Virus genome (UHGV): UHGV-0140151
Reading direction: 5' to 3' (one strand)
From: a virus
DNA: 16,798 nucleotides
Shown: positions 974 to 15,831 of the stretch, in pieces
Position numbering within the stretch: position 1 is the stretch's first letter
Layout: the number at the start of each line of letters is the position of its first letter
The notes under the pieces: model-generated
What the model was told of the DNA's origin: nothing
Database searches by the model: none
Seen by the model: the letters and a program-made list of their open reading frames with translations, nothing else
Made by a program: the position numbers and the translations under genes

Positions 974-1388
974 AGTTACGGCCTCACAATCAGGTTTAAC
1001 AACCTGCTACCCGCTGTCAAACAGGTGGCAGGACGTGACAGGGTTGACAGACTGGCGATTGTGAAACCAGCAGGCCGAAGCCTCCCCATCACGCCCCACC
1101 ATAATTTGGGCGTAACGCGGTTTAACGGACACAAAAATACCGCAATATCGGAAATCTGCGGTTGTCCGCACAATCATTCAGGCTGTCAAACCTGGTCGCA
1201 GAATTTGCTACGACGGCATGAATATAAGCCTGAACATTAGAAAGATCAACAGAATTTTTATCAGATGCTGTTTTTTGTGACGATGTAGATCATACATTCC
1301 CGATTAGAAACATCAATTTAATTTTCTAACACATAATTACGAGCGATGATTTTTCCGCCGCACAGTTATTGTACAGTCAATCGCAACA

Positions 1389-2546: not shown

Positions 2547-3545
2547 TCACATCCTCTTAGACACAAAGAACAGCGGAGTCACCGTCTTGTTCTCTTTGAC
2601 CGGTATTTCTTGTTGTTTATTGGCTGATATTGGCAGACCATAAGTGGCATTAGCCCCCAGGGATTCAAGCATCGCTGCGACAATGCGGGCATCATCCTCT
2701 GACTGCATACGGCAGAGCGCCCGGCGCTGTTCTGCGCTGATAAAAACAGGCATTTCCTGGATAGCATCACGCAAAATACGGCGGCATTTCTTCGCGTTCT
2801 CCCCCTGGCTTTCCATCATCGCGGCCTGGTCGCGTAGTTTGTCGCGAAGCTGCATATTTTCCACTTCAAGATGTATCAGTTCCGACTCCAGAACTTCACG
2901 TTGTGCTGATTCGAGTATGGCTTGCTGACTCCTCATTGCTGAAAAGTGGTGAACCAGATCCGTAGCAGCATTATCGGTAAAACCTTGTTCGATAAGTGCC
3001 GCATGAATCGCCGCGTCGCGTTCTTCTGCTGATTCAAGCATCAGGCTTTTCTTGTCGAGGCTGATATAGTTAGGCACAGTTACGTAATCAAAACCGTGAA
3101 AAGACTTTACCAGGGATACAGAGTAATCTGGACCAGATGTAGCCCATGACCAACCGCCTGCGCCAGAATTAATCATACCCTGAACAATACGTCCGGTGTC
3201 CGTATCCAGTATTTCCTGTGTATGGGTAACAATGCCGTTGTCGTCAATTGAAATATCAATAGTCCTGTTTGACGGCACGTTCTCCAATACAACAGGCTTC
3301 CCATCTACCATCACAACAGAGACTTCCGGCAAGTCCAGGCTTTTCGTTTTGTTATAGTGCATCGCCCGGCGACCATGACCGTAATAACCATACATCTCAC
3401 CCAGCGCGATACGCTCTTTTGTTTCTGGCGAGTTGAATGTGTCTCGTACCGACTGGATAACGTAATTGCGATTGTTCTGAGGTGTGTGTTTGCGGATTTT
3501 CTCTACCAGGGAGAAGCGATCCGTAACGGTATTCAGTGATTGCAT
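2547..3545 (-). CDS. putative prohead protease / scaffold-like head morphogenesis protein
   Basis: 332-aa ORF directly downstream of the putative portal gene, with GGAGGG Shine-Dalgarno and a 13-bp gap. N-terminal globular part followed by a long charged coiled-coil-like C-terminal region, an architecture typical of protease-scaffold proteins. Inferred from gene order; not verified. Confidence 0.4.
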   Translation of the reverse strand: MQSLNTVTDRFSLVEKIRKHTPQNNRNYVIQSVRDTFNSPETKERIALGEMYGYYGHGRRAMHYNKTKSLDLPEVSVVMVDGKPVVLENVPSNRTIDISIDDNGIVTHTQEILDTDTGRIVQGMINSGAGGWSWATSGPDYSVSLVKSFHGFDYVTVPNYISLDKKSLMLESAEERDAAIHAALIEQGFTDNAATDLVHHFSAMRSQQAILESAQREVLESELIHLEVENMQLRDKLRDQAAMMESQGENAKKCRRILRDAIQEMPVFISAEQRRALCRMQSEDDARIVAAMLESLGANATYGLPISANKQQEIPVKENKTVTPLFFVSKRM

Positions 3546-3558
3546 TATTTCCCTCCGG

Positions 3559-5244
3559 TTAATTATTGCTCATCACAAATTTTGCAAAGTTGATTAATTG
3601 TTCTTGCGTCCAGTTTTCCGGATCGTCACCGGACGACAACGGCGCGGATTCGTACATACCATGCTCGTTGTTTTGCTCTGATTCATTCGCCTTAAACTCT
3701 TTGATCATTGTGTTGAGAGTGTCATCGTCGATACGAAGCTGTTCGTTGAACAGATAACGCATAAACGCGTCGCTACCCGCCAGTTTCGGGTTGTTCTGGA
3801 TCTGGTCCATTATTTGCGAGATGACAGCTACGAAGTTGGCGCGCGCATCCAGCTCTCGGTTTTCCTCTTCCTGGATAGCTGTGTTCATTGAGTTGAATTG
3901 CACGTCATAAGGACGGTTTTTTTCGGTGTAAACCTTCCCGTATTTATAAGCGAGGTGAATGTCATGAAGCCGATAAATAGTCCGCTGGGCGGCCTGTCTG
4001 ATCCAGTTCGCGCGTAATGCGGCCTGGATAGCTGTTTGCTGCCAACCGCCTTCTCCAAGTCCACCACTCATCTGATCAGCCCAGCCAAGCATTGTTGCGT
4101 CAATACCGAGGCTTGCCGCGAGCTGTCGGAGATGAAACATAACGTCTTCGATACCACTGATATCTGCGGGTATAGATTGCGTATCAATGGTGATCCCGTT
4201 CTTCCCATCCCCCATGACAGGTATCAGATGGTTAAGTACAGACGGGAGAGCATTAGAATTAATCGACCGTTGCGCTACGAGGTCGCTATGACGCTTCAGT
4301 GCCTGGCTGACCCCGCGCGTATAATTCGCCGCGTTTACCGGATCTATCGTGTTCGTTGTGAGTGCAATCAGGCGATCAATTTTTGCAGCGTTGTTTCGCG
4401 TTGCTTTCAGCGCAGCAAGCGCGGCACATAAATTCAGGTAGGGTTCATAACTGTATTCAAGAAACGACGTACCGTAGTTCTGCGTCTCCATTAACGGCTT
4501 GTCCTGCTGTTCACTAAGCAAGGAATAGCCTTTAGTGCCGTAAGTTACTGGCATTACTTTATGCTGAGGCGTCCAGTACGGGTTTTTCATGGAAACCAGA
4601 TTCCACGGTTCGGTTATAACCCTGCGCAAAGTATGCGTATCCAGAATGTAATCACCGCTGAATCCGACAAGTTGGCTGCCGCGATAAAACTCCTGAACGA
4701 AATGAGGGAGCGTGTAATAGCTCGACTCAATTCCAGTTATCCCCTTCCCTTGCTCTGCATATGGACGGATATACGACACACCGAAAATAGCCATGATCAT
4801 GGCCCACGATGGCAGGCCATCATTAATCATTGAGCTTAAATCAGCGGTCAATTCCTCACATCGACTTACAGCCTCCTTATCCGCCCCATTTTTCGGAGCG
4901 AGAATAAATGCGAGGCCTGTTTTTTTTGATGGAGCCAGAGAATGCGCAATGTGAATGTTTAATGCTGTGGAGATTGTCGGGCTTTTCGCCATCGTCTCCA
5001 GTATGTTGTATTTTTGCAGGCGGTCACTCGGTAATTCTGCCGATATAGATACTGTATCCGCCGCGCTTGTCATGCCATCGCTATTGCTCCCCAGGATGCC
5101 AGGACGCAAGGCGGACAGGCCAGAACGAGCAACGACGCTATGCCCGCTCGTAAATACGACCGGATCGGCAGGCGTAACATCACCACCGCTGAAGGCTTTC
5201 TTCAATGCCGACAGAAAGCCCTTGTTTTTGTCTTTCGTTGCCAT
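3559..5244 (-). CDS. putative phage portal protein (or other large head protein)
   Basis: 561-aa ORF first in a tightly packed minus-strand pair; size and position consistent with a portal protein. Assignment is by context only. Confidence 0.4.
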   Translation of the reverse strand: MATKDKNKGFLSALKKAFSGGDVTPADPVVFTSGHSVVARSGLSALRPGILGSNSDGMTSAADTVSISAELPSDRLQKYNILETMAKSPTISTALNIHIAHSLAPSKKTGLAFILAPKNGADKEAVSRCEELTADLSSMINDGLPSWAMIMAIFGVSYIRPYAEQGKGITGIESSYYTLPHFVQEFYRGSQLVGFSGDYILDTHTLRRVITEPWNLVSMKNPYWTPQHKVMPVTYGTKGYSLLSEQQDKPLMETQNYGTSFLEYSYEPYLNLCAALAALKATRNNAAKIDRLIALTTNTIDPVNAANYTRGVSQALKRHSDLVAQRSINSNALPSVLNHLIPVMGDGKNGITIDTQSIPADISGIEDVMFHLRQLAASLGIDATMLGWADQMSGGLGEGGWQQTAIQAALRANWIRQAAQRTIYRLHDIHLAYKYGKVYTEKNRPYDVQFNSMNTAIQEEENRELDARANFVAVISQIMDQIQNNPKLAGSDAFMRYLFNEQLRIDDDTLNTMIKEFKANESEQNNEHGMYESAPLSSGDDPENWTQEQLINFAKFVMSNN

Positions 5245-5476: not shown

Positions 5477-5659
5477 GTGAAGTATTCAGAGTTCAAACGC
5501 TGGTTAATCCAGCAAGGGGCAGAGTTCAGGAAAGCGCCTGGTGGCGGCAGTCATCAGAAAGTGAACCTGAACGGAAAGCGGTCGGTTTTCCCGGACCACG
5601 GTTCAAAGGAAATGCCTGAACCGCTACGCAAGAAAATAATGAAGGACCTGGGGCTTTAA
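5477..5659 (+). CDS. hicA: HicA-family mRNA interferase toxin
   Basis: 60-aa ORF with GTG start preceded by AAGGA. Sequence (GSHQK...GKRSVFPDHGSKEMPEPLRKKIMKDLGL) recalls E. coli HicA; immediately followed by hicB. Confidence 0.85.
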   Translation: MKYSEFKRWLIQQGAEFRKAPGGGSHQKVNLNGKRSVFPDHGSKEMPEPLRKKIMKDLGL

Positions 5660-5689: not shown

Positions 5690-6121
5690 ATGTTTAACTA
5701 TCCGGTAAAACTGGAGCGCGACGACAAAACCGGCGCGTATGTCGTATCATGCCGCGACCTACCATTGTTTAATTCCGTGGGTGACTCAGTTGAAGAAGCG
5801 TTGCTTGAGGCTGGTTATGGATTGGTCGCAGCGGTTGCGATTGAGATTGAAGAACGCCGACCTGTTCCCACTGGTAGCGAGCCAAAAGAAGGTGAGTACG
5901 TTGTCTCTTTGCCAGTGCTACCAGCAATGAAGGCTGCACTCCACAACGCGATGATAGAAACCGGCACACGCAAAGCAGAGTTGGCGCGCAAACTCGGCAA
6001 AAATGGAACACAGATTGATCGGCTTCTCGACGTCGAACATTCATCGAAAGTTGAAACTGTCGAGCTGGCACTGCATCAACTGAATAAAAATATCGCCGTA
6101 TCTGTCACACCAATGCGGTGA
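5690..6121 (+). CDS. hicB: HicB-family antitoxin
   Basis: 143-aa ORF with AGGAG Shine-Dalgarno. HicB-like N-terminal domain and C-terminal HTH (RKAELARKLGKNGTQIDRLL). Its stop codon TGA (6119..6121) lies inside the IS-end-like repeat copy. Confidence 0.85.
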   Translation: MFNYPVKLERDDKTGAYVVSCRDLPLFNSVGDSVEEALLEAGYGLVAAVAIEIEERRPVPTGSEPKEGEYVVSLPVLPAMKAALHNAMIETGTRKAELARKLGKNGTQIDRLLDVEHSSKVETVELALHQLNKNIAVSVTPMR

Positions 6122-6147
6122 CTGCTCCCCGCCCTGGCTGGGCGAGG
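6118..6147 (+). repeat. solo copy of the IS200/IS605-type subterminal hairpin (gtgactgctccccgccctg...ggcgagg)
   Basis: 19-nt exact match to 7717..7735 (the end of the tnpB element), followed by the same imperfect palindrome ccccgccc-N-gggcgagg. Confidence 0.55.
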
Positions 6148-6293
6148 ATTTACGGGGTATTTGTTAAAAACGCTCTATTCAAAGAAGAAATACCGAATCC
6201 CCCGGAGGTTATCCGGGGTGTCCGGTCGCCAGGTCAGGTTTCCAGCCCAAAATCGCTTTGTTCTGTTTTGGCTTCGAACATCGTGAAGTTAAG

Positions 6294-6310
6294 CCCTCCC
6301 TCCCCCCCCC
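6294..6310. repeat. homopolymeric C tract (ccctccct + 9 C)
   Basis: Directly visible: ccctccctccccccccc. Lies about 85 bp upstream of the putative -35 of the cargo operon. Confidence 0.9.
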
Positions 6311-6391
6311 ATTTTTACAGGATAAATATCAACCGAATTTATCTCATCGACATCTCTAATCGAAATCAGTGCTACGCCCAGTTTACTAAAC

Positions 6392-6419
6392 TTGCAGTTT
6401 AATAAAAAATTAGTATCAT
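6392..6419 (+). promoter_or_regulatory. candidate sigma70-type promoter for the XRE / 252-aa operon
   Basis: TTGCAG (6392..6397), 16-nt AT-rich spacer, TATCAT (6414..6419); GGAGGG Shine-Dalgarno at 6430..6435 precedes ATG 6441. The -35 match is weak. Confidence 0.3.
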
Positions 6420-6440
6420 GGTGGATATCGGAGGGTGGTG

Positions 6441-6896
6441 ATGAAAACATCTTATTTGACAATTTTAGCATTTCATATTCGAGACCTTCGCGAGGAGAAA
6501 GGAATCACCCAATTAGACATAGCGAACAAGCTAGGTATGACAAGTGCTGGTTGGGGGAAAATTGAAAATGGCAAATCGGCTCTCTCAGTAGAGAATATGT
6601 TAAAATTTTGCAAGATTATGGATATAGATCCATGCGTCCTACTTAACATATCTACAGAGTCCGCACGGATGTTAATTGAAAAAGGCTGGGTAGTATCTTA
6701 TTCACCTGTTGAGCGTGATAATCTTATAGATGGGAAAAATATATATACCAAGCTACATACAATGAATAATATTATGAGGAAATTTGTTGGTGAGCATTTG
6801 GAGGAAATATTAACAAGAGAATATAAAGACAGCATAACAAAATGCTCAACAATTTATATGGTTATTGTCAATAAGTTAGGTGTAAACATTATTTAA
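6441..6896 (+). CDS. XRE-family helix-turn-helix protein with a C-terminal domain of unknown function
   Basis: The ORF track starts at GTG 6435; ATG 6441 is preferred because of the Shine-Dalgarno spacing. HTH motif (ITQLDIANKLGMTSAGWGKIENGKSALSVENMLKFCKIMDID). AT-rich codon usage unlike the flanking genes. Confidence 0.75.
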   Translation: MKTSYLTILAFHIRDLREEKGITQLDIANKLGMTSAGWGKIENGKSALSVENMLKFCKIMDIDPCVLLNISTESARMLIEKGWVVSYSPVERDNLIDGKNIYTKLHTMNNIMRKFVGEHLEEILTREYKDSITKCSTIYMVIVNKLGVNII

Positions 6897-6913
6897 GCAA
6901 GTGGAGTGTGGAT

Positions 6914-7666
6914 ATGGCTTATCGCGCAGATAGAGATTTAACATTTTTATCGCAGTGCAGCGATTGTGATCTTGATGATCTGGTCAATCTGTTGATTTAT
7001 GACAACGATGGAAAAAAACGCTGGACTGAAGAGTTATCAAACAACCCACTATATAAGCAATTTAGACCTCAACATAGCTTATACTGGCGTGAAATTGCAG
7101 CCGAAATCCAATGCTATGGTGGAAATACATTTGCAACATTGTTGCGTGGTGGAAAAGGAGTTTACTATAAAGAAATTCTTATTGATGTGTGTAAAAGGCT
7201 AAAAGTAAACTTTAATTCTGAAAGCGAAGTGGATGTGATTGAGAGAAATCTTCTTATGAAGATTTTAAGTGATGCTTTAGATAAAATGCCGCAGCAAGAC
7301 ATAAAAGAACTTGCTTTAGAGTTTGGTTTAGTAAACTTAAAAACATTCAATCGTGAAGCGATGCTGGCTGCAATACAATATATTTTTAATAGTGGCGGAT
7401 TTCGATCATATCAAATTACAGTTATGTTAGCCAATGTTATACTAAAGGCATTGATCGGTCGTGGTTTAACAATTGCAGCAAATGCGACTTTAGTTAGAAT
7501 AGTAAGCCTTTTAGCCGGTCCAATTGGATGGGCAATAACGGCCGCATGGACATTAGTTGACATTGGGGGCGCAGCTTATCGCGTTACAATACCTGCAGTG
7601 ATCCAACTAGCCGTTCTCAGAAGTAAAATAAACAATAATATAAAAGTTGATGACATTATTTTCTGA
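6914..7666 (+). CDS. hypothetical protein with a C-terminal glycine-rich hydrophobic (membrane-associating) region; possibly YaaW/UPF0174-like
   Basis: The ORF track starts at GTG 6908; ATG 6914 is preferred (GGAG 7 nt upstream). Sits 18 bp after the XRE gene. C-terminal segment GRGLTIAANATLVRIVSLLAGPIGWAITAAWTLVDIGGAAYRVTIPAVIQLAVL is hydrophobic and Gly/Ala-rich. Family resemblance is from memory only. Confidence 0.7.
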   Translation: MAYRADRDLTFLSQCSDCDLDDLVNLLIYDNDGKKRWTEELSNNPLYKQFRPQHSLYWREIAAEIQCYGGNTFATLLRGGKGVYYKEILIDVCKRLKVNFNSESEVDVIERNLLMKILSDALDKMPQQDIKELALEFGLVNLKTFNREAMLAAIQYIFNSGGFRSYQITVMLANVILKALIGRGLTIAANATLVRIVSLLAGPIGWAITAAWTLVDIGGAAYRVTIPAVIQLAVLRSKINNNIKVDDIIF

Positions 7667-7674
7667 TTAAAAAT

Positions 7675-7698
7675 GGGGCATTGCTGCCCCTTTCTTTC
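7675..7698 (+). terminator. intrinsic terminator of the cargo operon
   Basis: Stem ggggca / tgcccc with loop ttgc, followed by tttcttt; located 9 nt after the stop codon at 7666. Confidence 0.55.
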
Positions 7699-7700
7699 AC

Positions 7701-7900
7701 GCTGCATACCCGTTAGGTGACTGCTCCCCGCCCTGTCGGGCGAGGCTTCCCACTTCTCAGGCCGCAACCGTCTGTGTGACGGATTTACGCTGGCCTCCAT
7801 GGGCAGAAACGACGAGTCCCGCCGCTTGTAATTCCAGTATGCCCTTGCGTTTGATGTTGAGCGCCGCGTTGATATCGCGGTCATGTTCAACTCCACACTC
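7701..7900 (-). ncRNA. putative TnpB-associated omega RNA (reRNA) spanning the tnpB 3' end and right-end hairpin
   Basis: In characterised TnpB elements the guide RNA is made from the 3' end of tnpB plus the right end, with the guide read from flanking DNA. A strong hairpin is present at 7726..7745. Extent is inferred, not observed. Confidence 0.3.
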
Positions 7901-9045
7901 TGGACACTGCCAGATGCGCTTATGTAATGGCATCTCCGACATTTTGTGACCGCAGCAGTGGCAGGTTTTCGAACTGGCGAACCATTGATCCAGTTTCAAC
8001 AGATGCACACCTTTCTCTGCTGCTTTGTATTCCAGTTTTGTGATGAATCCAGACCATCCAGCATCGCCTATCGCACGAGCCAGATGGTGATTTTTCGTCA
8101 TATTTGCCGTTTTCAATGTCTCGACAATTACCGCTTGGTTTTCGTCAACAATTGCACGAGAGAGCTTGTGTTGAAAATCAGCACGGGCATTCGTCACCCG
8201 TTCATGTAAGGCCGCAAGACGGATTCTGGCCTTTTTACGGTTCGCGCTTCCCTTTTGTTTACGGGATAGCGCTTTTTGTTTGCGTCGCAGATTACGGCTG
8301 GCATTGATGAGATGGCGGGGATTCGCAATTTTTGCTCCGTCAGACCTGATGGCGTAGTGCTCAAGCCCCATATCCAGGCCAGTAACTGTTGATATCAACG
8401 TGGGTTTTGCCGGAGCTTCCAGACCATCATCGCAAAGTAGCGACGCATAATATTTACCCGTTTCTGAACGGGTGATAGTAATGCTTTTCAGCTTTCCATG
8501 AAGTTCACGATGAAGGCGTGCTTCTATCGGGGCCAGTTTGGGGATTTTGATGGCATTATCCAGCACCTTAATCCCGACACAGTGGTAGCTCGATTGTTTT
8601 CCGTGTTTACGTTTAAACGTCGGGAACTGCGCTTTCAGCTTCGGATTAAAAAAGTTGGAAAATGCCACATCAAGATTGATTACCGCCTGTTGCAATGCCA
8701 TTGAGTCAAATTCTTTGAGCCAGGCATATTTACGGGACTTTTTGGCCACAGACAACAACGGTTTCAGATCGTTACGCGGACTTAAATTTACTCCGTGTCT
8801 CTGGTAAGCGTGTTTTTTGATGTGAAGAGCTTTATTGTACGCAAAGCGTACCGCGCCGAACTGGGCATTGAGATACTTTGCCTGTTCCGGTGTTGGATAG
8901 ATGCGTACTTTTGTTGCTCTTAACATAGTCACTGCTCATTGGTACAGGTTTTTATGCTAACACCGTAATAATATTTTTAAAGCCCTATGGGCTTTTCCGC
9001 CTTTCCTCCCCGCCCGCATTGGGCGAGGGTTCTCGGCGGTTTTTC
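7717..9045 (-). mobile_element. IS200/IS605-family insertion sequence carrying tnpB only (no tnpA)
   Basis: TnpB ORF flanked by subterminal imperfect palindromes (7726..7745 and 9006..9028, both ctccccgccc-N-gggcgagg). The left boundary is set by the point where identity with the 6118 copy begins; the right boundary is approximate. Confidence 0.7.
7757..8932 (-). CDS. tnpB: TnpB (IS200/IS605 OrfB-family, RNA-guided nuclease-type transposase accessory protein)
   Basis: 391-aa ORF with N-terminal MTMLRATKVRIYPTPEQ, RuvC-like motifs (GLDMGLEHYA; EYKAAEKG) and a C-terminal zinc finger (CHCCGHK...CPECG). Confidence 0.9.
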   Translation of the reverse strand: MTMLRATKVRIYPTPEQAKYLNAQFGAVRFAYNKALHIKKHAYQRHGVNLSPRNDLKPLLSVAKKSRKYAWLKEFDSMALQQAVINLDVAFSNFFNPKLKAQFPTFKRKHGKQSSYHCVGIKVLDNAIKIPKLAPIEARLHRELHGKLKSITITRSETGKYYASLLCDDGLEAPAKPTLISTVTGLDMGLEHYAIRSDGAKIANPRHLINASRNLRRKQKALSRKQKGSANRKKARIRLAALHERVTNARADFQHKLSRAIVDENQAVIVETLKTANMTKNHHLARAIGDAGWSGFITKLEYKAAEKGVHLLKLDQWFASSKTCHCCGHKMSEMPLHKRIWQCPECGVEHDRDINAALNIKRKGILELQAAGLVVSAHGGQRKSVTQTVAA

Positions 9046-9398
9046 GCTGAAACCCAGTTTACGGTCTGTTCTTTGGCCTGGTCGAGTGTCAAAAATTCAC
9101 CAATATATTGAGATATGCCTCTCAAAGCATCGATGAACTCCATTTGTGATGATTTAGTAAATGCACCACTAAGGAAGTCAACAACAATTTTAGGCGTTTC
9201 TTGTGCCGCCGGTTGCACTTCCTCTTCTTGCTGTTGCGCTGGATTATTCGATGAACCAAGCCCCAGCTTCATCATCACTTCAACGATCCGCACGCCAATA
9301 GTGACACGTTGTACCGCAGTCGCGCTTTTTTGCGCTGACATCAGCTCAGACAGTTCTTTGCCTAAGCTAAGGCGCTCCGTTACTGATATTTTCACCAC
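8985..9398 (-). CDS. hypothetical phage protein whose 3' end is encoded by the IS left-end hairpin (chimeric or truncated)
   Basis: 137-aa ORF overlapping the upstream gene by 7 nt. Its last 16 codons (REPSPNAGGEERRKSP) and stop are encoded by 8985..9035, which lies within the IS end. Confidence 0.5.
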   Translation of the reverse strand: MVKISVTERLSLGKELSELMSAQKSATAVQRVTIGVRIVEVMMKLGLGSSNNPAQQQEEEVQPAAQETPKIVVDFLSGAFTKSSQMEFIDALRGISQYIGEFLTLDQAKEQTVNWVSAKNRREPSPNAGGEERRKSP

Positions 9399-13268: not shown

Positions 13269-13841
13269 TTACAACTCAGTTTGAGTTTGGCGCTTCTCTA
13301 CAGGGTGATAACGATAAATCGTCGATACACCGATATCGTAAATAATTGCCAACTGTTTCCTGCTGTAGCCATTTTCGATCAACCTCGCTATTTGCTCATG
13401 TTGTTCTTTTGTCAACTTCGGGCGACGTCCGCCAATGCGTCCCTGTTCGCGTGCAGCTGCCAGTCCGGCCAGGGTTCTCTCAACAATTAATTCACGTTCC
13501 ATTTCTGCCAAAGCCCCCATGACGTGAAAAAAGAAACGCCCCATGGGTGTTGAGGTGTCAATGCTGTCTGTCAGACTACGGAAATTAACACCTTTTTCCC
13601 GCAGCTCCTCAATAAGCGTGATCAGGTGTTTCATACTTCTGCCGAGCCTGTCCAGCTTCCAGACAACCAGCGTATCTCCTTCTGATAACGTTCTGAGCAG
13701 CTTTTTCAATCCTGGTCTGGCTGACTTTGTTCCGCTGATTTTATCTTCAAAAATTAGTTCACATCCTGCGCAGTTCAGTGCATTTCTTTGTAAATCTGTG
13801 TTTTGGTCATTTGTTGACACACGAATGTAGCCAATTTGCAT
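13269..13841 (-). CDS. serine DNA invertase (Gin/Cin/Pin/Hin/Min family)
   Basis: ORF track gives 13269..13850; ATG 13841 is preferred (GAGG 9 nt upstream), giving MQIGYIRVSTNDQNTDLQRNAL... Catalytic-serine motif (VSTNDQ), central WKLDRLGRS and C-terminal HTH are typical of Pin/Cin. Confidence 0.9.
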   Translation of the reverse strand: MQIGYIRVSTNDQNTDLQRNALNCAGCELIFEDKISGTKSARPGLKKLLRTLSEGDTLVVWKLDRLGRSMKHLITLIEELREKGVNFRSLTDSIDTSTPMGRFFFHVMGALAEMERELIVERTLAGLAAAREQGRIGGRRPKLTKEQHEQIARLIENGYSRKQLAIIYDIGVSTIYRYHPVEKRQTQTEL

Positions 13842-13894
13842 GAAAAACATCCTCTTGTTTAGTTAAAAATACATAGTTGGTATAGGTAGGGATT

Positions 13895-13920
13895 AAGACT
13901 AAAACGTTGGTTTGGGGGAA
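13895..13920 (+). other. putative invertase crossover site 1 (gix/hix-like)
   Basis: aagactaaaacgTTggtttgggggaa; core AAAACG-TT-GGTTT resembles hix/gix (AAAACC-AA-GGTTT). About 50 bp from the invertase start, at the 5' edge of cassette 1. Confidence 0.45.
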
Positions 13921-14373
13921 GGCTCAGCATTGCCCGTTGGCGTGCCCGTTCCGTGGCCCTTAGAAACACCACCAACGGGCTGGCTGAAATGCAATGGTGC
14001 AGCATTTTCTTCTGAAAAGTACCCAAAACTGGCAAAGGCTTACCCGACAAATAAATTGCCTGATTTACGCGGTGAATTTATTCGTGGCTGGGATGATGGG
14101 CGTGGTGTGGATGCCGGGCGACAATTATTATCTTCACAGGGGGATGCAATAAGAAATATTGAGGGGTTCGCAGATGGCGGGATCGGCATGTCTTTTGATG
14201 CAATCAGAGGGGCTTTTTATGATGCAGGAACACGATCTGCGAGAATGCCGAATAACACAACTGATATAGGCAAAACCGATGACCTTGGATTCGACGCCTC
14301 TCGTGTCGTGCCAACAGCTAATGAAAACCGTCCTCGTAATATTGCCTTTAATTATATCGTAAGGGCGGCATAA
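13912..14373 (+). CDS. tail-fibre C-terminal variable cassette 1 (promoterless, silent orientation)
   Basis: Collar-type motif (PVPWP...TGWLKCNGAAFS...YP..LAKAYPTNKLPDLRGEFIRGWDDGRG), unique middle, shared ending RPRNIAFNYIVRAA. No ATG; the frame is open upstream through the crossover site. Confidence 0.7.
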   Translation: MGEGSALPVGVPVPWPLETPPTGWLKCNGAAFSSEKYPKLAKAYPTNKLPDLRGEFIRGWDDGRGVDAGRQLLSSQGDAIRNIEGFADGGIGMSFDAIRGAFYDAGTRSARMPNNTTDIGKTDDLGFDASRVVPTANENRPRNIAFNYIVRAA

Positions 14374-14392
14374 AAACGTTGGTTTGGGGGAA
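14367..14392 (+). other. putative invertase crossover site 2
   Basis: ggcataaaaacgTTggtttgggggaa; same core as site 1; overlaps the stop of cassette 1. Confidence 0.45.
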
Positions 14393-14890
14393 GGCTCTGC
14401 GCTGCCCGTTGGTGTACCTGTTCCATGGCCATCAGCCACACCGCCAACGGGGTGGCTGAAATGTAACGGAGCAGCATTTTCTTCTGAAAAGTACCCAAAT
14501 CTGGCAAAGGTTTACCCCACCAATAAATTGCCGGATCTACGGGGCGAATTTATTCGTGGCTGGGATGACGGACGTGGTATGGATACGGGGAGGGCAATAT
14601 TATCCGCTCAGGGCGATGCCATACGTAATATCTATGGTGAGTTCAAGACTGTAAACACCGAAAATTATTCAATATGGGAATCAGTAGGCTCGTTTAAGGG
14701 GGCAGTAGTGCCTTTGAGCCCCTCAACGAACAATAGTTATTTCTCCTTAGTCAGAAGTATGGTGACAGAAAGAACAGATGGCGCTGTTTACCCAAAAGTG
14801 ATTGGCCTTGATGCTTCAAGAATTGTTCCAACTGCAAACGAAAACCGTCCTCGTAACATTGCGTTTAATTACATCGTAAGAGCCGCATGA
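14384..14890 (+). CDS. tail-fibre C-terminal variable cassette 2 (silent)
   Basis: Same conserved 5' collar-type segment and 3' RPRNIAFNYIVRAA as cassette 1, with a different middle (...EFKTVNTENYSIWESVGSFKG...). Confidence 0.7.
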   Translation: MGEGSALPVGVPVPWPSATPPTGWLKCNGAAFSSEKYPNLAKVYPTNKLPDLRGEFIRGWDDGRGMDTGRAILSAQGDAIRNIYGEFKTVNTENYSIWESVGSFKGAVVPLSPSTNNSYFSLVRSMVTERTDGAVYPKVIGLDASRIVPTANENRPRNIAFNYIVRAA

Positions 14891-14909
14891 AAACGTTGGT
14901 TTGGGGGAA
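14884..14909 (+). other. putative invertase crossover site 3
   Basis: cgcatgaaaacgTTggtttgggggaa; same core as sites 1 and 2. Confidence 0.45.
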
Positions 14910-15362
14910 GGCTCTGCGCTGCCCGTTGGTGTACCTGTTCCGTGGCCCTCAGCCACACCACCAACGGGCTGGCTAAAATGTAACGGTGCGGCATTTTCTG
15001 CTGAAGAATACCCGGAATTGGCAAAGGCTTATCCGACAAATAAATTGCCTGATTTACGTGGTGAGTTTATGCGTGGCTGGGATGATGGAAGAGGCGTTGA
15101 TAGTGGCAGGGAGATTCTCACTGCGCAATCTCATGGTATGCCGTCTATTTCAGGAACGTTTAATGGTCTTTTTGCTGTTAAACAAACAAATGGTTTAGGT
15201 GGTGTTTCTGTAGTAAAAAGTAAAAATGCTGAAACTTTATCTACTTCATCTGGATCAGGTTCCGTGTTTGATTACACGTTTAATGTCAGCGGCTCGACTC
15301 CGGTATCACCAGAACTTCGTCCGCGTAATATTGCATTTAATTACATCGTAAGAGCGGCATAG
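14901..15362 (+). CDS. tail-fibre C-terminal variable cassette 3 (silent)
   Basis: Conserved ends as in cassettes 1 and 2; Gly/Ser-rich unique middle. Confidence 0.7.
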   Translation: MGEGSALPVGVPVPWPSATPPTGWLKCNGAAFSAEEYPELAKAYPTNKLPDLRGEFMRGWDDGRGVDSGREILTAQSHGMPSISGTFNGLFAVKQTNGLGGVSVVKSKNAETLSTSSGSGSVFDYTFNVSGSTPVSPELRPRNIAFNYIVRAA

Positions 15363-15381
15363 AAACGTTGGTTTAGGGGAA
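15356..15381 (+). other. putative invertase crossover site 4
   Basis: gcatagaaacgTTggtttaggggaag; same central AAACGTTGGTTT. Confidence 0.4.
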
Positions 15382-15402
15382 GGTTCGGCGCTGCCCGTTG
15401 GC

Positions 15403-15831
15403 GTGCCCGTTCCATGGCCCTCAGCCACACCGCCAACGGGGTGGCTAAAATGTAACGGAGCAGCATTTTCTTCTGAAAAGTACCCCAAGCTGGCAAAGGT
15501 TTACCCAACGTTAAAATTACCTGATTTACGCGGTGAGTTTATCCGTGGTTGGGATGATGGGCGAGGTGTGGATGCGGGAAGGGGCATCTTAAGCATACAG
15601 GGGTGGTTAACAGGAAGTCATTATCATAATATTCGGTCATGGGACGCGTGGGATAACACGGTATTGGTGCCAAATGACAGAGGGGGGGATAGTCTGTTGT
15701 CGACAGATAACGCCGTCCGAGAAGGAGCGATTAATGGTAAATTTACCAGTCAATACAGAACGGAGTTATCTGGGGGGGATGAAACCCGCCCACGTAACAT
15801 TGCCTTCAATTATATTGTGAGAGCAGCATAA
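15403..15831 (+). CDS. tail-fibre C-terminal variable cassette 4 (silent), translationally coupled to tfa
   Basis: Frame is open from site 4 (about 15361). Unique middle with HYH (GSHYHNIRSWD). Stop TAA overlaps the tfa ATG (TAATG). Confidence 0.7.
   Translation: MPVPWPSATPPTGWLKCNGAAFSSEKYPKLAKVYPTLKLPDLRGEFIRGWDDGRGVDAGRGILSIQGWLTGSHYHNIRSWDAWDNTVLVPNDRGGDSLLSTDNAVREGAINGKFTSQYRTELSGGDETRPRNIAFNYIVRAA

Follow-up and report, generated by a model that had tools for sequence, protein, structure and literature searches.

The stretch of DNA analyzed here (the window; 16,798 nt of UHGV virus genome UHGV-0140151) belongs to a P1-like phage-plasmid, and the mobile-element context of the locus includes a C4 antisense RNA, Rha, Icd, RepL, a portal protein and DarA. 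An open reading frame (ORF) check confirmed two co-directional plus-strand genes, the first encoding an XRE-family helix-turn-helix (HTH) protein and the second a protein of the JukA/YaaW family. The features of the locus are listed below, with the basis of each assignment in parentheses. L001 and L002 are related plasmids with and without the cargo, respectively.

6118..6150, no strand assigned: solo IS200/IS605 end-like hairpin, the left "IS-end repeat" (repeat families D1 and D2)
6235..6297, minus strand: 63-nt remnant, the 3' end of a displaced ddrB-like gene (L002 alignment)
6298..7672, plus strand: AT-rich cargo block (alignment to L001 and L002)
6389..6419, plus strand: conserved putative promoter/candidate operator, AACTTGCAGTTTAATAAAAAATTAGTATCAT (cross-locus conservation)
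6430..6434, plus strand: Shine-Dalgarno sequence GGAGG of gene 1, 6 nt 5' of the ATG (direct reading)
6441..6896, plus strand: gene 1, XRE-family HTH protein, 151 aa (Pfam HTH_3, family alignment)
6903..6906, plus strand: Shine-Dalgarno sequence GGAG of gene 2 (direct reading)
6914..7666, plus strand: gene 2, jukA (JukA/YaaW family), 250 aa (Pfam, PADLOC, near-identical homologue)
7675..7698, bidirectional: intrinsic terminator, GGGGCAttgcTGCCCC plus a T-run (terminator scan of both strands)
7717..9046, minus strand: complete tnpB-only IS200/IS605-family element, 1330 bp (uninterrupted site in L001 and L002; Pfam)

The two genes make up an AT-rich block, as a sequence-only reading of the window had recognized: the cargo is 36.1% GC, against 48.4% in the left flank, 48.9% in the adjacent insertion sequence (IS) and 46.0% in the right flank of the surrounding P1-like phage-plasmid. 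We set the cargo limits by comparison with related plasmids, and the alignments with L001 and L002 put the junctions at ~6298 and ~7674. In related plasmids the same place is filled by a 461-aa ddrB-like gene, which the cargo replaces here. The L002 copy of this gene (6135..7520, minus strand), the product of which matches Pfam ddrB-ParB (E=2.5e-40), aligns to the window only as far as 6297, and a poly-C tract lies at the junction of its remnant with the cargo. Directly adjoining upstream are hicA (5477..5659) and hicB (5690..6121), a proximity that had also been read correctly. Most sister plasmids lack the XRE-jukA pair. An Rfam scan gave no match within or beside the operon. An ORF at 6118..6402 (94 aa) was not accepted as a gene: it runs across both the IS relic and what is left of the ddrB-like gene, is absent from the annotated coding sequences of L001 and L002, and has no PADLOC match.

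The cargo had been described as ending in a clean terminator and as being bracketed by IS-end repeats. Both structures exist, but neither is a border of the cargo. The hairpin (7675-7690) is indeed followed by a T-run, but it belongs to the plasmid backbone: a homologous hairpin is found in cargo-free L002 at 7592-7606. Direct repeats are present at 6106-6141 and 7705-7740. The left solo hairpin overlaps the hicB stop codon, and the left repeat is identical in sequence in L001 and L002, so that it is conserved whether or not a relative carries the cargo. The right repeat is the end of the tnpB element at 7717-9046, which is missing from the other cargo-bearing plasmids. This element has end hairpins at 7724-7747 and 9006-9029 and carries tnpB at 7757..8932 (Pfam OrfB_IS605 and Cas12f1-like_TNB), and L001 and L002 show the uninterrupted site, ccgttag|ctgaaaccc. 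It therefore follows that the repeats do not delimit the cargo, and we rejected them as the borders of a mobilized unit: the left copy also occurs where there is no cargo, and the right copy belongs to a later IS insertion. The tnpB element is a lineage-specific insertion that lies just beyond the cargo, part of its context rather than of the operon.

A promoter-like region and a Shine-Dalgarno sequence had been noted for the two genes. Shine-Dalgarno sequences precede both genes, but a sigma-70 consensus scan returned no promoter upstream of gene 1, and it is instead a conserved motif that supports the presence of a promoter. This motif comprises a −35-like TTGCAG (6392-6397), which fits the consensus at only 3 of 6 positions, a 16-nt spacer and a −10-like TATCAT (6414-6419). 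Across homologous loci, 22 of its columns are invariant in surroundings that cannot be aligned. The window contains a single copy of the pattern AACTTGNAGTTTNNNAAANNNNNAGTATCAT, against 0 expected by chance; of the 15 loci compared, 12 have one copy each, and its distance from the XRE gene downstream is constant. In all loci the palindrome AAACTtgcAGTTT overlaps the −35-like hexamer, and a third AAACT half-site is degenerate in both the window and L001. The conservation of the motif suggests that it acts as a promoter/operator, and the combination of an HTH protein with a palindrome over the −35-like hexamer is consistent with controller-like autoregulation by gene 1.

The gene 1 product carries an HTH_3 domain at aa 13-65 (nt 6477-6635; Pfam E=4.9e-10), followed by 86 more residues, in agreement with the XRE-type HTH and ~90 extra C-terminal residues first noted. 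Its ATG at 6441 is the conserved start, at which homologues open with MKTS... In the family alignment the HTH region is nearly invariant, and the C-terminal ~86 aa include the conserved motif GW.VSYS..V..D.L as well as a helical tail that varies; the AF2 model (pLDDT 67) is too weak in this domain for interpretation. The best named matches are to controller proteins (PADLOC Control_protein, 1.3e-6; C.AhdI, PDB 1y7y, 2.7e-4). Gene 1 resembles controller (C) proteins of restriction-modification systems, such as C.AhdI, in encoding a small XRE HTH protein placed first in a defense operon, with inverted repeats overlapping the −35 element; it differs in having double the length and an additional conserved domain at its C terminus, and its role as autoregulator of the operon is presumed. 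There was no match to the PADLOC JukB models even at E<=1. Matches to NCBIfam antitoxin models were below threshold and covered the HTH only: TIGR03070 (HipB-like) scored 34.5 bits against a cutoff of 71.65, HipB 17.6 against 79 and HigA 17.1 against 47.7.

Gene 2 had been described as encoding a 252-aa protein with a Gly/Ala-rich hydrophobic C terminus, perhaps YaaW/UPF0174-like. The family guess proved right and the C terminus is as described, but the length is 250 aa from the ATG at 6914, the conserved start, at which homologues open with MAYR...; 252 aa is obtained only by counting from a GTG at 6908. The gap between the two genes is 17 nt. The protein has an N-terminal DUF3944 (PF13099; aa 3-37, nt 6920-7024, E=1.4e-12) and a Cbp3-like Ubiq_cyt_C_chap domain (PF03981; aa 56-227, nt 7079-7594, E=4.6e-12, 46.6 bits against a cutoff of 21.5), and it matches PADLOC JukA model PDLC04113 from end to end (E=4.3e-69; residues 2-242 of the protein, 4-241 of the 245 positions of the profile) as well as PDLC04111 (E=3.6e-63). 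PHROG 13238 also matches over the full length, and the phage collection searched contained no close copy of either gene. The conserved hydrophobic region spans aa 156-236 (nt 7379-7621; 62% A/I/L/G/V, 8.6% charged), and C-terminal Kyte-Doolittle windows of 19 residues reach values of 1.5-1.64, at the borderline for a transmembrane segment. We drew no structural inference from the AF2 model, in which mean pLDDT is 64.8 and falls below 50 for aa 161-219; a Foldseek search of the PDB with this model gave nothing below E=0.7, and a sequence search of the PDB gave no match. Chromosomal YaaW of Escherichia coli K-12 (UPF0174; NCBIfam NF007593/PRK10236) shares the family, the length and a collinear alignment (~30% identity), whereas the gene in the window lies on a mobile element with an XRE partner. 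JukA scores 114.3 bits against the NF007593 equivalog cutoff of 395 and is therefore a paralogue of YaaW, not an orthologue.

A synteny search had been suggested as a check on the pair. An XRE gene (~150 aa) lies immediately upstream of jukA, in the same direction and with gaps of 8-17 nt, in the window, L001, L003 and all seven further Enterobacterales clusters that we looked up (Rahnella, Enterobacter, Pectobacterium, Klebsiella oxytoca, Klebsiella pneumoniae and two Serratia clusters; gaps of 8-16 nt), the surroundings of which are otherwise unrelated. In E. coli, another P1-like lineage has its pair, 65%/72% identical, at a different locus. JukA homologues with ~60% identity are solitary beside housekeeping genes in Proteus, with no XRE gene, and those in Haemophilus and Aliarcobacter have only a short divergent HTH as a partner.

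An operon of this type has been tested before, as "Jo6" (jukA;HTH-XRE, Escherichia; JukA WP_121372120.1), which is marked active (Li et al., bioRxiv 10.1101/2022.09.17.508391; Cell 2025;188:2127). The window JukA is identical at 246 of 250 residues to WP_121372120.1, which is the L001 JukA according to RefSeq and the JukA of Jo6, and the window XRE protein is identical at 146 of 151 residues to that of L001/Jo6. A 369-nt part of the Jo6 synthetic sequence matches L001 at 369 of 369 positions and the window at 360 of 369 (97.6%). The four JukA substitutions (window residue first, D107G, P126S, A220T and L232I) and the five in XRE all lie outside invariant columns. Both genes and their order, the promoter motif, the ~94-kb P1-like phage-plasmid type and the slot from hicB to the darA side are shared with Jo6. 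The window differs in having the tnpB insertion sequence directly downstream, in that its ddrB-like gene is absent and not relocated, and in its substitutions, activity being known from the Jo6 allele alone. Judged by this degree of identity, the operon is an allele of one already cloned and found to block jumbo phages, not a new defense or toxin-antitoxin system.

The Jo6 operon protected Pseudomonas aeruginosa PAO1 against PhiKZ-like nucleus-forming jumbo phages, and Escherichia JukA was sufficient alone: a strain with XRE deleted was viable and still immune (Li et al., bioRxiv 10.1101/2022.09.17.508391). According to the same preprint, JukA has a diffuse distribution until cells are infected, when it gathers at the ejection site within minutes; arrest by the single protein precedes nucleus assembly and leaves phage DNA undegraded, unlike arrest by JukAB. 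The authors reported Cbp3-like homology of JukA (HHpred 98.6%) and left trans-acting host factors possible. Their activity data are for PAO1, PhiKZ-like phages and the L001-type allele only. We regard the locus, with a probability of roughly 0.85, as a single-effector Juk ("jumbo phage killer") defense operon that a P1-like phage-plasmid carries as a moron. The phage-exclusion module suspected from the sequence is thus supported by a 98%-identical allele that, with the same XRE partner, gave published immunity, whereas the view that it was uncharacterized and matched no named defense system did not survive.

Another close system is JukAB of P. aeruginosa PA14 (PADLOC/DefenseFinder "JukAB"), which shares the JukA sensor family with its DUF3944 plus Cbp3-like layout, the PhiKZ-like nucleus-forming class of targets and the relocalization of JukA to the ejection site (reported for Jo6-type JukA). 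It differs in its partner. JukB reportedly forms tetrameric pores on the early-infection vesicle and has no counterpart here, where the partner is the upstream XRE gene, dispensable for immunity in the 98%-identical allele; Jo6-type JukA, moreover, arrests infection without degrading the phage genome. The PADLOC JukB models matched neither gene 1 nor any of the eight neighboring ORFs of the window, and the locus therefore lies outside two-component JukAB; by gene content it is best classed as "JukA plus XRE/JukA sufficient." It is unlikely that the system is nonetheless a canonical two-component Juk in which JukA is only the sensor and the gene for the effector, JukB or another, lies at some other place in the host or plasmid. 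Such an arrangement would suit a JukA in which Pfam finds no recognizable enzymatic domain, but Escherichia JukA was active alone in PAO1, a host so distant that it is unlikely to provide a cognate partner, and arrest without DNA degradation differs from the JukAB phenotype.

The sequence-only reading had favored something TA-like or an abortive-infection moron, in which XRE would neutralize or repress a membrane-disrupting gene 2 toxin that is released on infection or plasmid loss and kills the cell. The HTH-first order, the tight linkage, the plasmid position beside hicAB, the hydrophobic C terminus with its borderline transmembrane scores and the weak, subthreshold antitoxin matches of gene 1 all fit a type II toxin-antitoxin pair. 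Against this, the operon without XRE gives a viable, immune strain, JukA homologues occur in Proteus with no XRE gene and in Haemophilus and Aliarcobacter with only a short divergent HTH, and the antitoxin scores are far under their cutoffs. JukAB immunity is also nonabortive, protected cells continuing to divide (shown for JukAB; Li et al., bioRxiv 10.1101/2022.09.17.508391). We consider such a pair very improbable. That the genes serve the phage-plasmid's own biology, gene 2 acting as a Cbp3-like chaperone of some membrane or virion protein or as a factor excluding superinfecting P1-like relatives, is scarcely credible: gene 2 is homologous to a cytochrome b assembly chaperone domain and the pair occupies the slot of a ddrB-like virion/antirestriction gene beside the darA operon, but it is also found in chromosomes, integrative elements and other loci that have no P1 genes around them, most sister plasmids do without it, and a defense phenotype has been measured (98%-identical allele, PAO1). 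With Cbp3 (ubiquinol-cytochrome c chaperone, PF03981) itself, JukA shares domain-level homology over aa 56-227, whereas it adds the N-terminal DUF3944, its reported function is phage defense, and a link to cytochrome b assembly would be unexpected on a phage-plasmid.

If the locus is a single-effector Juk operon, a sigma-70-type promoter at ~6392-6419 would drive a short transcript encoding the repressor-like XRE protein and, 17 nt further on, JukA, with transcription ending at the backbone terminator. XRE may bind the invariant AAACT/AGTTT repeats over the −35 element and so set the level of JukA in the lysogen, a role like that of the controller proteins of restriction-modification systems and neither antitoxin nor effector. 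The hydrophobic C-terminal helices of JukA, to judge by their composition and high conservation, may engage the membrane-derived early-infection vesicle, which could explain why a separate effector is not needed. Counting against membrane engagement are the pLDDT of <50 at aa 161-219 and the diffuse JukA seen before infection in the preprint. The phage-plasmid may gain by shielding its host from competing enterobacterial phages of the Chimalliviridae. A fuller account, which we put forward tentatively and would not call probable, is that JukA combines the roles of sensor and effector, the invariant, hydrophobic helices of its Gly/Pro/Trp-rich C terminus (aa 160-236) inserting into or clamping the vesicle membrane so that the genome is not passed on to the phage nucleus; that XRE, tightly coinherited and with a conserved C-terminal domain and an invariant operator, goes beyond passive repression and could be an infection- or dosage-responsive switch that keeps JukA, as a protein with potential membrane activity, at a level safe for the lysogen; and that a ddrB-like virion antirestriction gene was swapped for protection of the host against enterobacterial nucleus-forming phages.

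What is new here is the conservation of the pair, the invariant promoter/operator-like motif, the replacement of the ddrB-like gene, and the finding that the terminator and IS repeats are not borders of the cargo. The locus exemplifies an accessory-gene slot of P1-like elements, from hicAB to the darA side, which here holds a defense operon in place of a ddrB-like virion gene. The invariant motif and the conserved C-terminal domain of XRE offer a handle on the strict coinheritance of a regulator that is dispensable for immunity, and they bear on how JukA acts without an effector. The locus would probably be missed by tools whose rules demand both JukA and JukB, and JukA-plus-XRE pairs on phage-plasmids may therefore be undercounted.

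The AT-rich cargo block (6298-7672) carries two co-directional plus-strand ORFs, as the sequence-only reading had claimed. We took ATG 6441 and ATG 6914 as their start codons because homologues of the two proteins open with MKTS... and MAYR..., respectively. The features of this part of the window are as follows.

5477..5659: HicA, directly upstream of the cargo
5690..6121: HicB, directly upstream of the cargo
6118-6150: solo IS-end-like hairpin, the left-hand repeat, kept in relatives whether they carry the cargo or lack it
6430-6434, plus strand: GGAGG, well-positioned Shine-Dalgarno of gene 1
6441..6896, plus strand: gene 1 (XRE family), 151 aa
6903-6906, plus strand: GGAG, well-positioned Shine-Dalgarno of gene 2
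6914..7666, plus strand: gene 2 (jukA), 250 aa
7717-9046, minus strand: complete tnpB-only IS200/IS605-family element, 1330 bp, with tnpB at 7757..8932

The other structural claims also held: both ribosome-binding sites are suitably spaced, and the cargo (36.1% GC) is more AT-rich than the left flank (48.4%), the right flank (46.0%) and the adjoining insertion sequence (48.9%). A terminator scan called the expected GC-rich hairpin and T-run at 7675-7698 on both strands. The position beside hicAB was likewise correct, and the hicAB-cargo block is flanked on both sides by minus-strand phage genes (head-processing protein, portal, DarA and DarA-related).

In the gene 1 product, 86 residues, close to the ~90 anticipated, follow an XRE-type HTH (Pfam HTH_3, aa 13-65, E=4.9e-10); the best named matches of the protein include controller proteins of restriction-modification systems. 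Gene 2 encodes DUF3944 (aa 3-37) and Ubiq_cyt_C_chap/Cbp3 (aa 56-227) Pfam domains, and its match to the PADLOC JukA models is full-length (PDLC04113, E=4.3e-69). The guess that it was YaaW/UPF0174-like was therefore right, YaaW being the former name of JukA, which serves as sensor in the "jumbo phage killer" system. With the equivalog model of E. coli YaaW its score was 114 bits, short of the cut-off of 395, and we therefore regard gene 2 as a paralogue of the chromosomal YaaW.

Megablast located the cargo block, 97% identical, in a small number of ~94 kb plasmids. One of these, NZ_CP173545.1 (L001), encodes a DUF3944 protein annotated by RefSeq as WP_121372120.1, the JukA of the published Escherichia operon Jo6. 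The window JukA is identical to this protein at 246/250 residues, and the window XRE protein is identical to its XRE neighbour in L001 at 146/151. The synthetic Jo6 insert begins at the XRE ATG (Li et al., Supplementary Table 4, bioRxiv 10.1101/2022.09.17.508391); over the 369 nt compared, it is identical to L001 throughout (369/369) and to the window at 360 positions. The locus is real, and by these comparisons the operon is an allele of an already characterised defence system. The Escherichia and Janthinobacterium operons, each pairing jukA with an Xre regulator, specifically protected PAO1 from PhiKZ-related phages; deletion of either gene showed that JukA is sufficient; and both JukAs were diffuse before infection, then concentrated at the infection site, and arrested infection early without degradation of the phage genome (Li et al., bioRxiv 10.1101/2022.09.17.508391). 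Immunity by JukAB is described in the literature as non-abortive. A defence-related module had thus been correctly sensed, a 98%-identical JukA with an XRE partner having given immunity in PAO1, but given the near identity of both proteins to those of the tested Jo6 operon, "uncharacterised" does not apply.

XRE homologues of about 150 aa (46-65% identity) were found by protein search in Enterobacterales only, and in all six clusters looked up (Rahnella, Enterobacter, Pectobacterium, K. oxytoca, S. marcescens and one named S. plymuthica) a 250-254-aa DUF3944+Cbp3 protein is encoded 8-14 nt downstream. The surroundings of these clusters differ, comprising integrases, resolvases, a restriction-modification system, a prophage tape-measure gene or core genes. 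The same arrangement occurs in K. pneumoniae and in a second E. coli P1-like lineage (L003), where the pair (65%/72% identical) occupies another locus, between antirepressor and large N-6 DNA methylase genes. JukA homologues of about 60% identity in Proteus lack an XRE partner, and those of Haemophilus and Aliarcobacter adjoin a short, divergently transcribed HTH. Going by gene neighbourhoods, the HTH partner of JukA is recurrent yet replaceable, which fits a regulator and not an obligatory antitoxin or effector. The lone Proteus homologues, together with the sufficiency of JukA after partner deletion (Li et al.), argue against a TA-like module.

In K. pneumoniae, many plasmids (about 105-117 kb) carry a distant JukA-like ORF annotated as hypothetical (about 29% identity over aa 60-237; for example, NZ_CP044030.1 96213-96695, from the ~110 kb plasmids), and other large plasmids or phage-plasmids may commonly carry JukA relatives. 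A further JukA homologue (56% identity) lies beside Tn3-family genes on a plasmid of Methylomonas sp. DH-1 (3076-4756) and is preceded by a 274-aa protein that is not XRE and had no match in Pfam or PADLOC; it may represent another type of JukA partner.

Of the upstream regions of nine XRE genes (180 nt each), the sole alignable part was a 31-nt block, AACTTGNAGTTTNNNAAANNNNNAGTATCAT, in which 22 columns are invariant. The window has a single copy (6389-6419; 0 expected by chance), and 12 of the 15 loci compared likewise have one copy, equally far from the start codon; L003, though it bears the pair, appears to be one base off the exact pattern. Within the block, a −35-like TTGCAG and a −10-like TATCAT are separated by 16 nt; a palindrome, AAACTtgcAGTTT, lies over the −35 and in most loci is followed by a third AAACT half-site. 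The HTH region of the XRE family is likewise almost invariant. We infer, by analogy with restriction-modification controller proteins, that the operon has its own dedicated, autoregulated promoter.

The hydrophobic C-terminus proposed for gene 2 was confirmed in composition (residues 156-236 are 62% A/I/L/G/V and 8.6% charged), but its hydropathy is borderline for a transmembrane segment. The tail holds many family-invariant residues (G182, G184, G202, P203, G205, W212, D216, R223 and T225-P227). An AF2 model placed four helices there at pLDDT <50, with the N-terminal 160 residues at higher confidence, and searches of the PDB with JukA by sequence and by fold gave no match. Hypothetically, the tail could make conditional contact with the EPI vesicle membrane; the published JukAs are diffuse before infection (bioRxiv 10.1101/2022.09.17.508391).

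Cargo borders were mapped by comparing the window with L001 and with a cargo-less plasmid, NZ_CP104667.1 (L002). Homology to L002 ends at about 6297 and restarts at about 7675. The slot in L002 holds a 461-aa minus-strand gene (6135-7520) with a ddrB-like ParB domain (Pfam PF18763, E=2.5e-40), which the cargo replaces, leaving its last 63 nt at window 6235-6297. L001 has a gene that matches it in length (1386 bp, 461 aa) between the portal gene and a tnpB gene. The poly-C tract at the left junction is not equally long in the window and in L001. Window 6200-6297 is identical to L002, and L001 differs there at several positions; this L002-like left flank, despite the 97% cargo identity with L001, suggests that homologous recombination in the flanks carried the cargo from one related plasmid to another. 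The terminator hairpin belongs to the backbone, with a counterpart at L002 7592-7606. It directly follows the stop codon of the adjacent minus-strand gene, and the operon thus relies on a borrowed bidirectional terminator.

The repeats said to bracket the cargo as IS ends are real, but they delimit no mobile unit, and we rejected them as borders: the right-hand copy is an end of the tnpB element, and the left-hand copy is present without the cargo. The element has similar end hairpins (7724-7747 and 9006-9029) and its insertion site, ccgttag|ctgaaaccc, is uninterrupted in L001 and L002. None of the related plasmids found carries the element, whose insertion replaces the final codons of the gene upstream of darA (122 aa) and results in an ORF of 137 aa (8985..9398). 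The solo hairpin shares its terminus, ...GGGGAGCAGTCAC, with the IS right end and provides the hicB stop codon.

From its gene content and best matches, the window most likely belongs to a ~94 kb P1-like phage-plasmid of E. coli/E. marmotae. Two Rfam matches make up a P1/P7-type immI immunity region beside Icd-like and Rha-family genes.

1021-1106, minus strand: P1-type C4 antisense RNA (68.4 bits)
1175-1227, minus strand: a1/b1 target sites of the C4 antisense RNA (54.4 bits)

A serine invertase gene (13269..13850, minus) adjoins four tandem ORFs (13912..14373, 14384..14890, 14901..15362 and 15403..15831) with common ends (N-terminal PVGVPVPWP..., C-terminal RPRNIAFNYIVRAA) and different middles, followed by a tail-fibre assembly gene; 13269-15831 resembles an invertible tail-fibre host-range region with multiple cassettes.

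The system being known already, the novelty of the locus is low; it has some modest use in illustrating an accessory slot of a phage-plasmid and for its conserved candidate operator.
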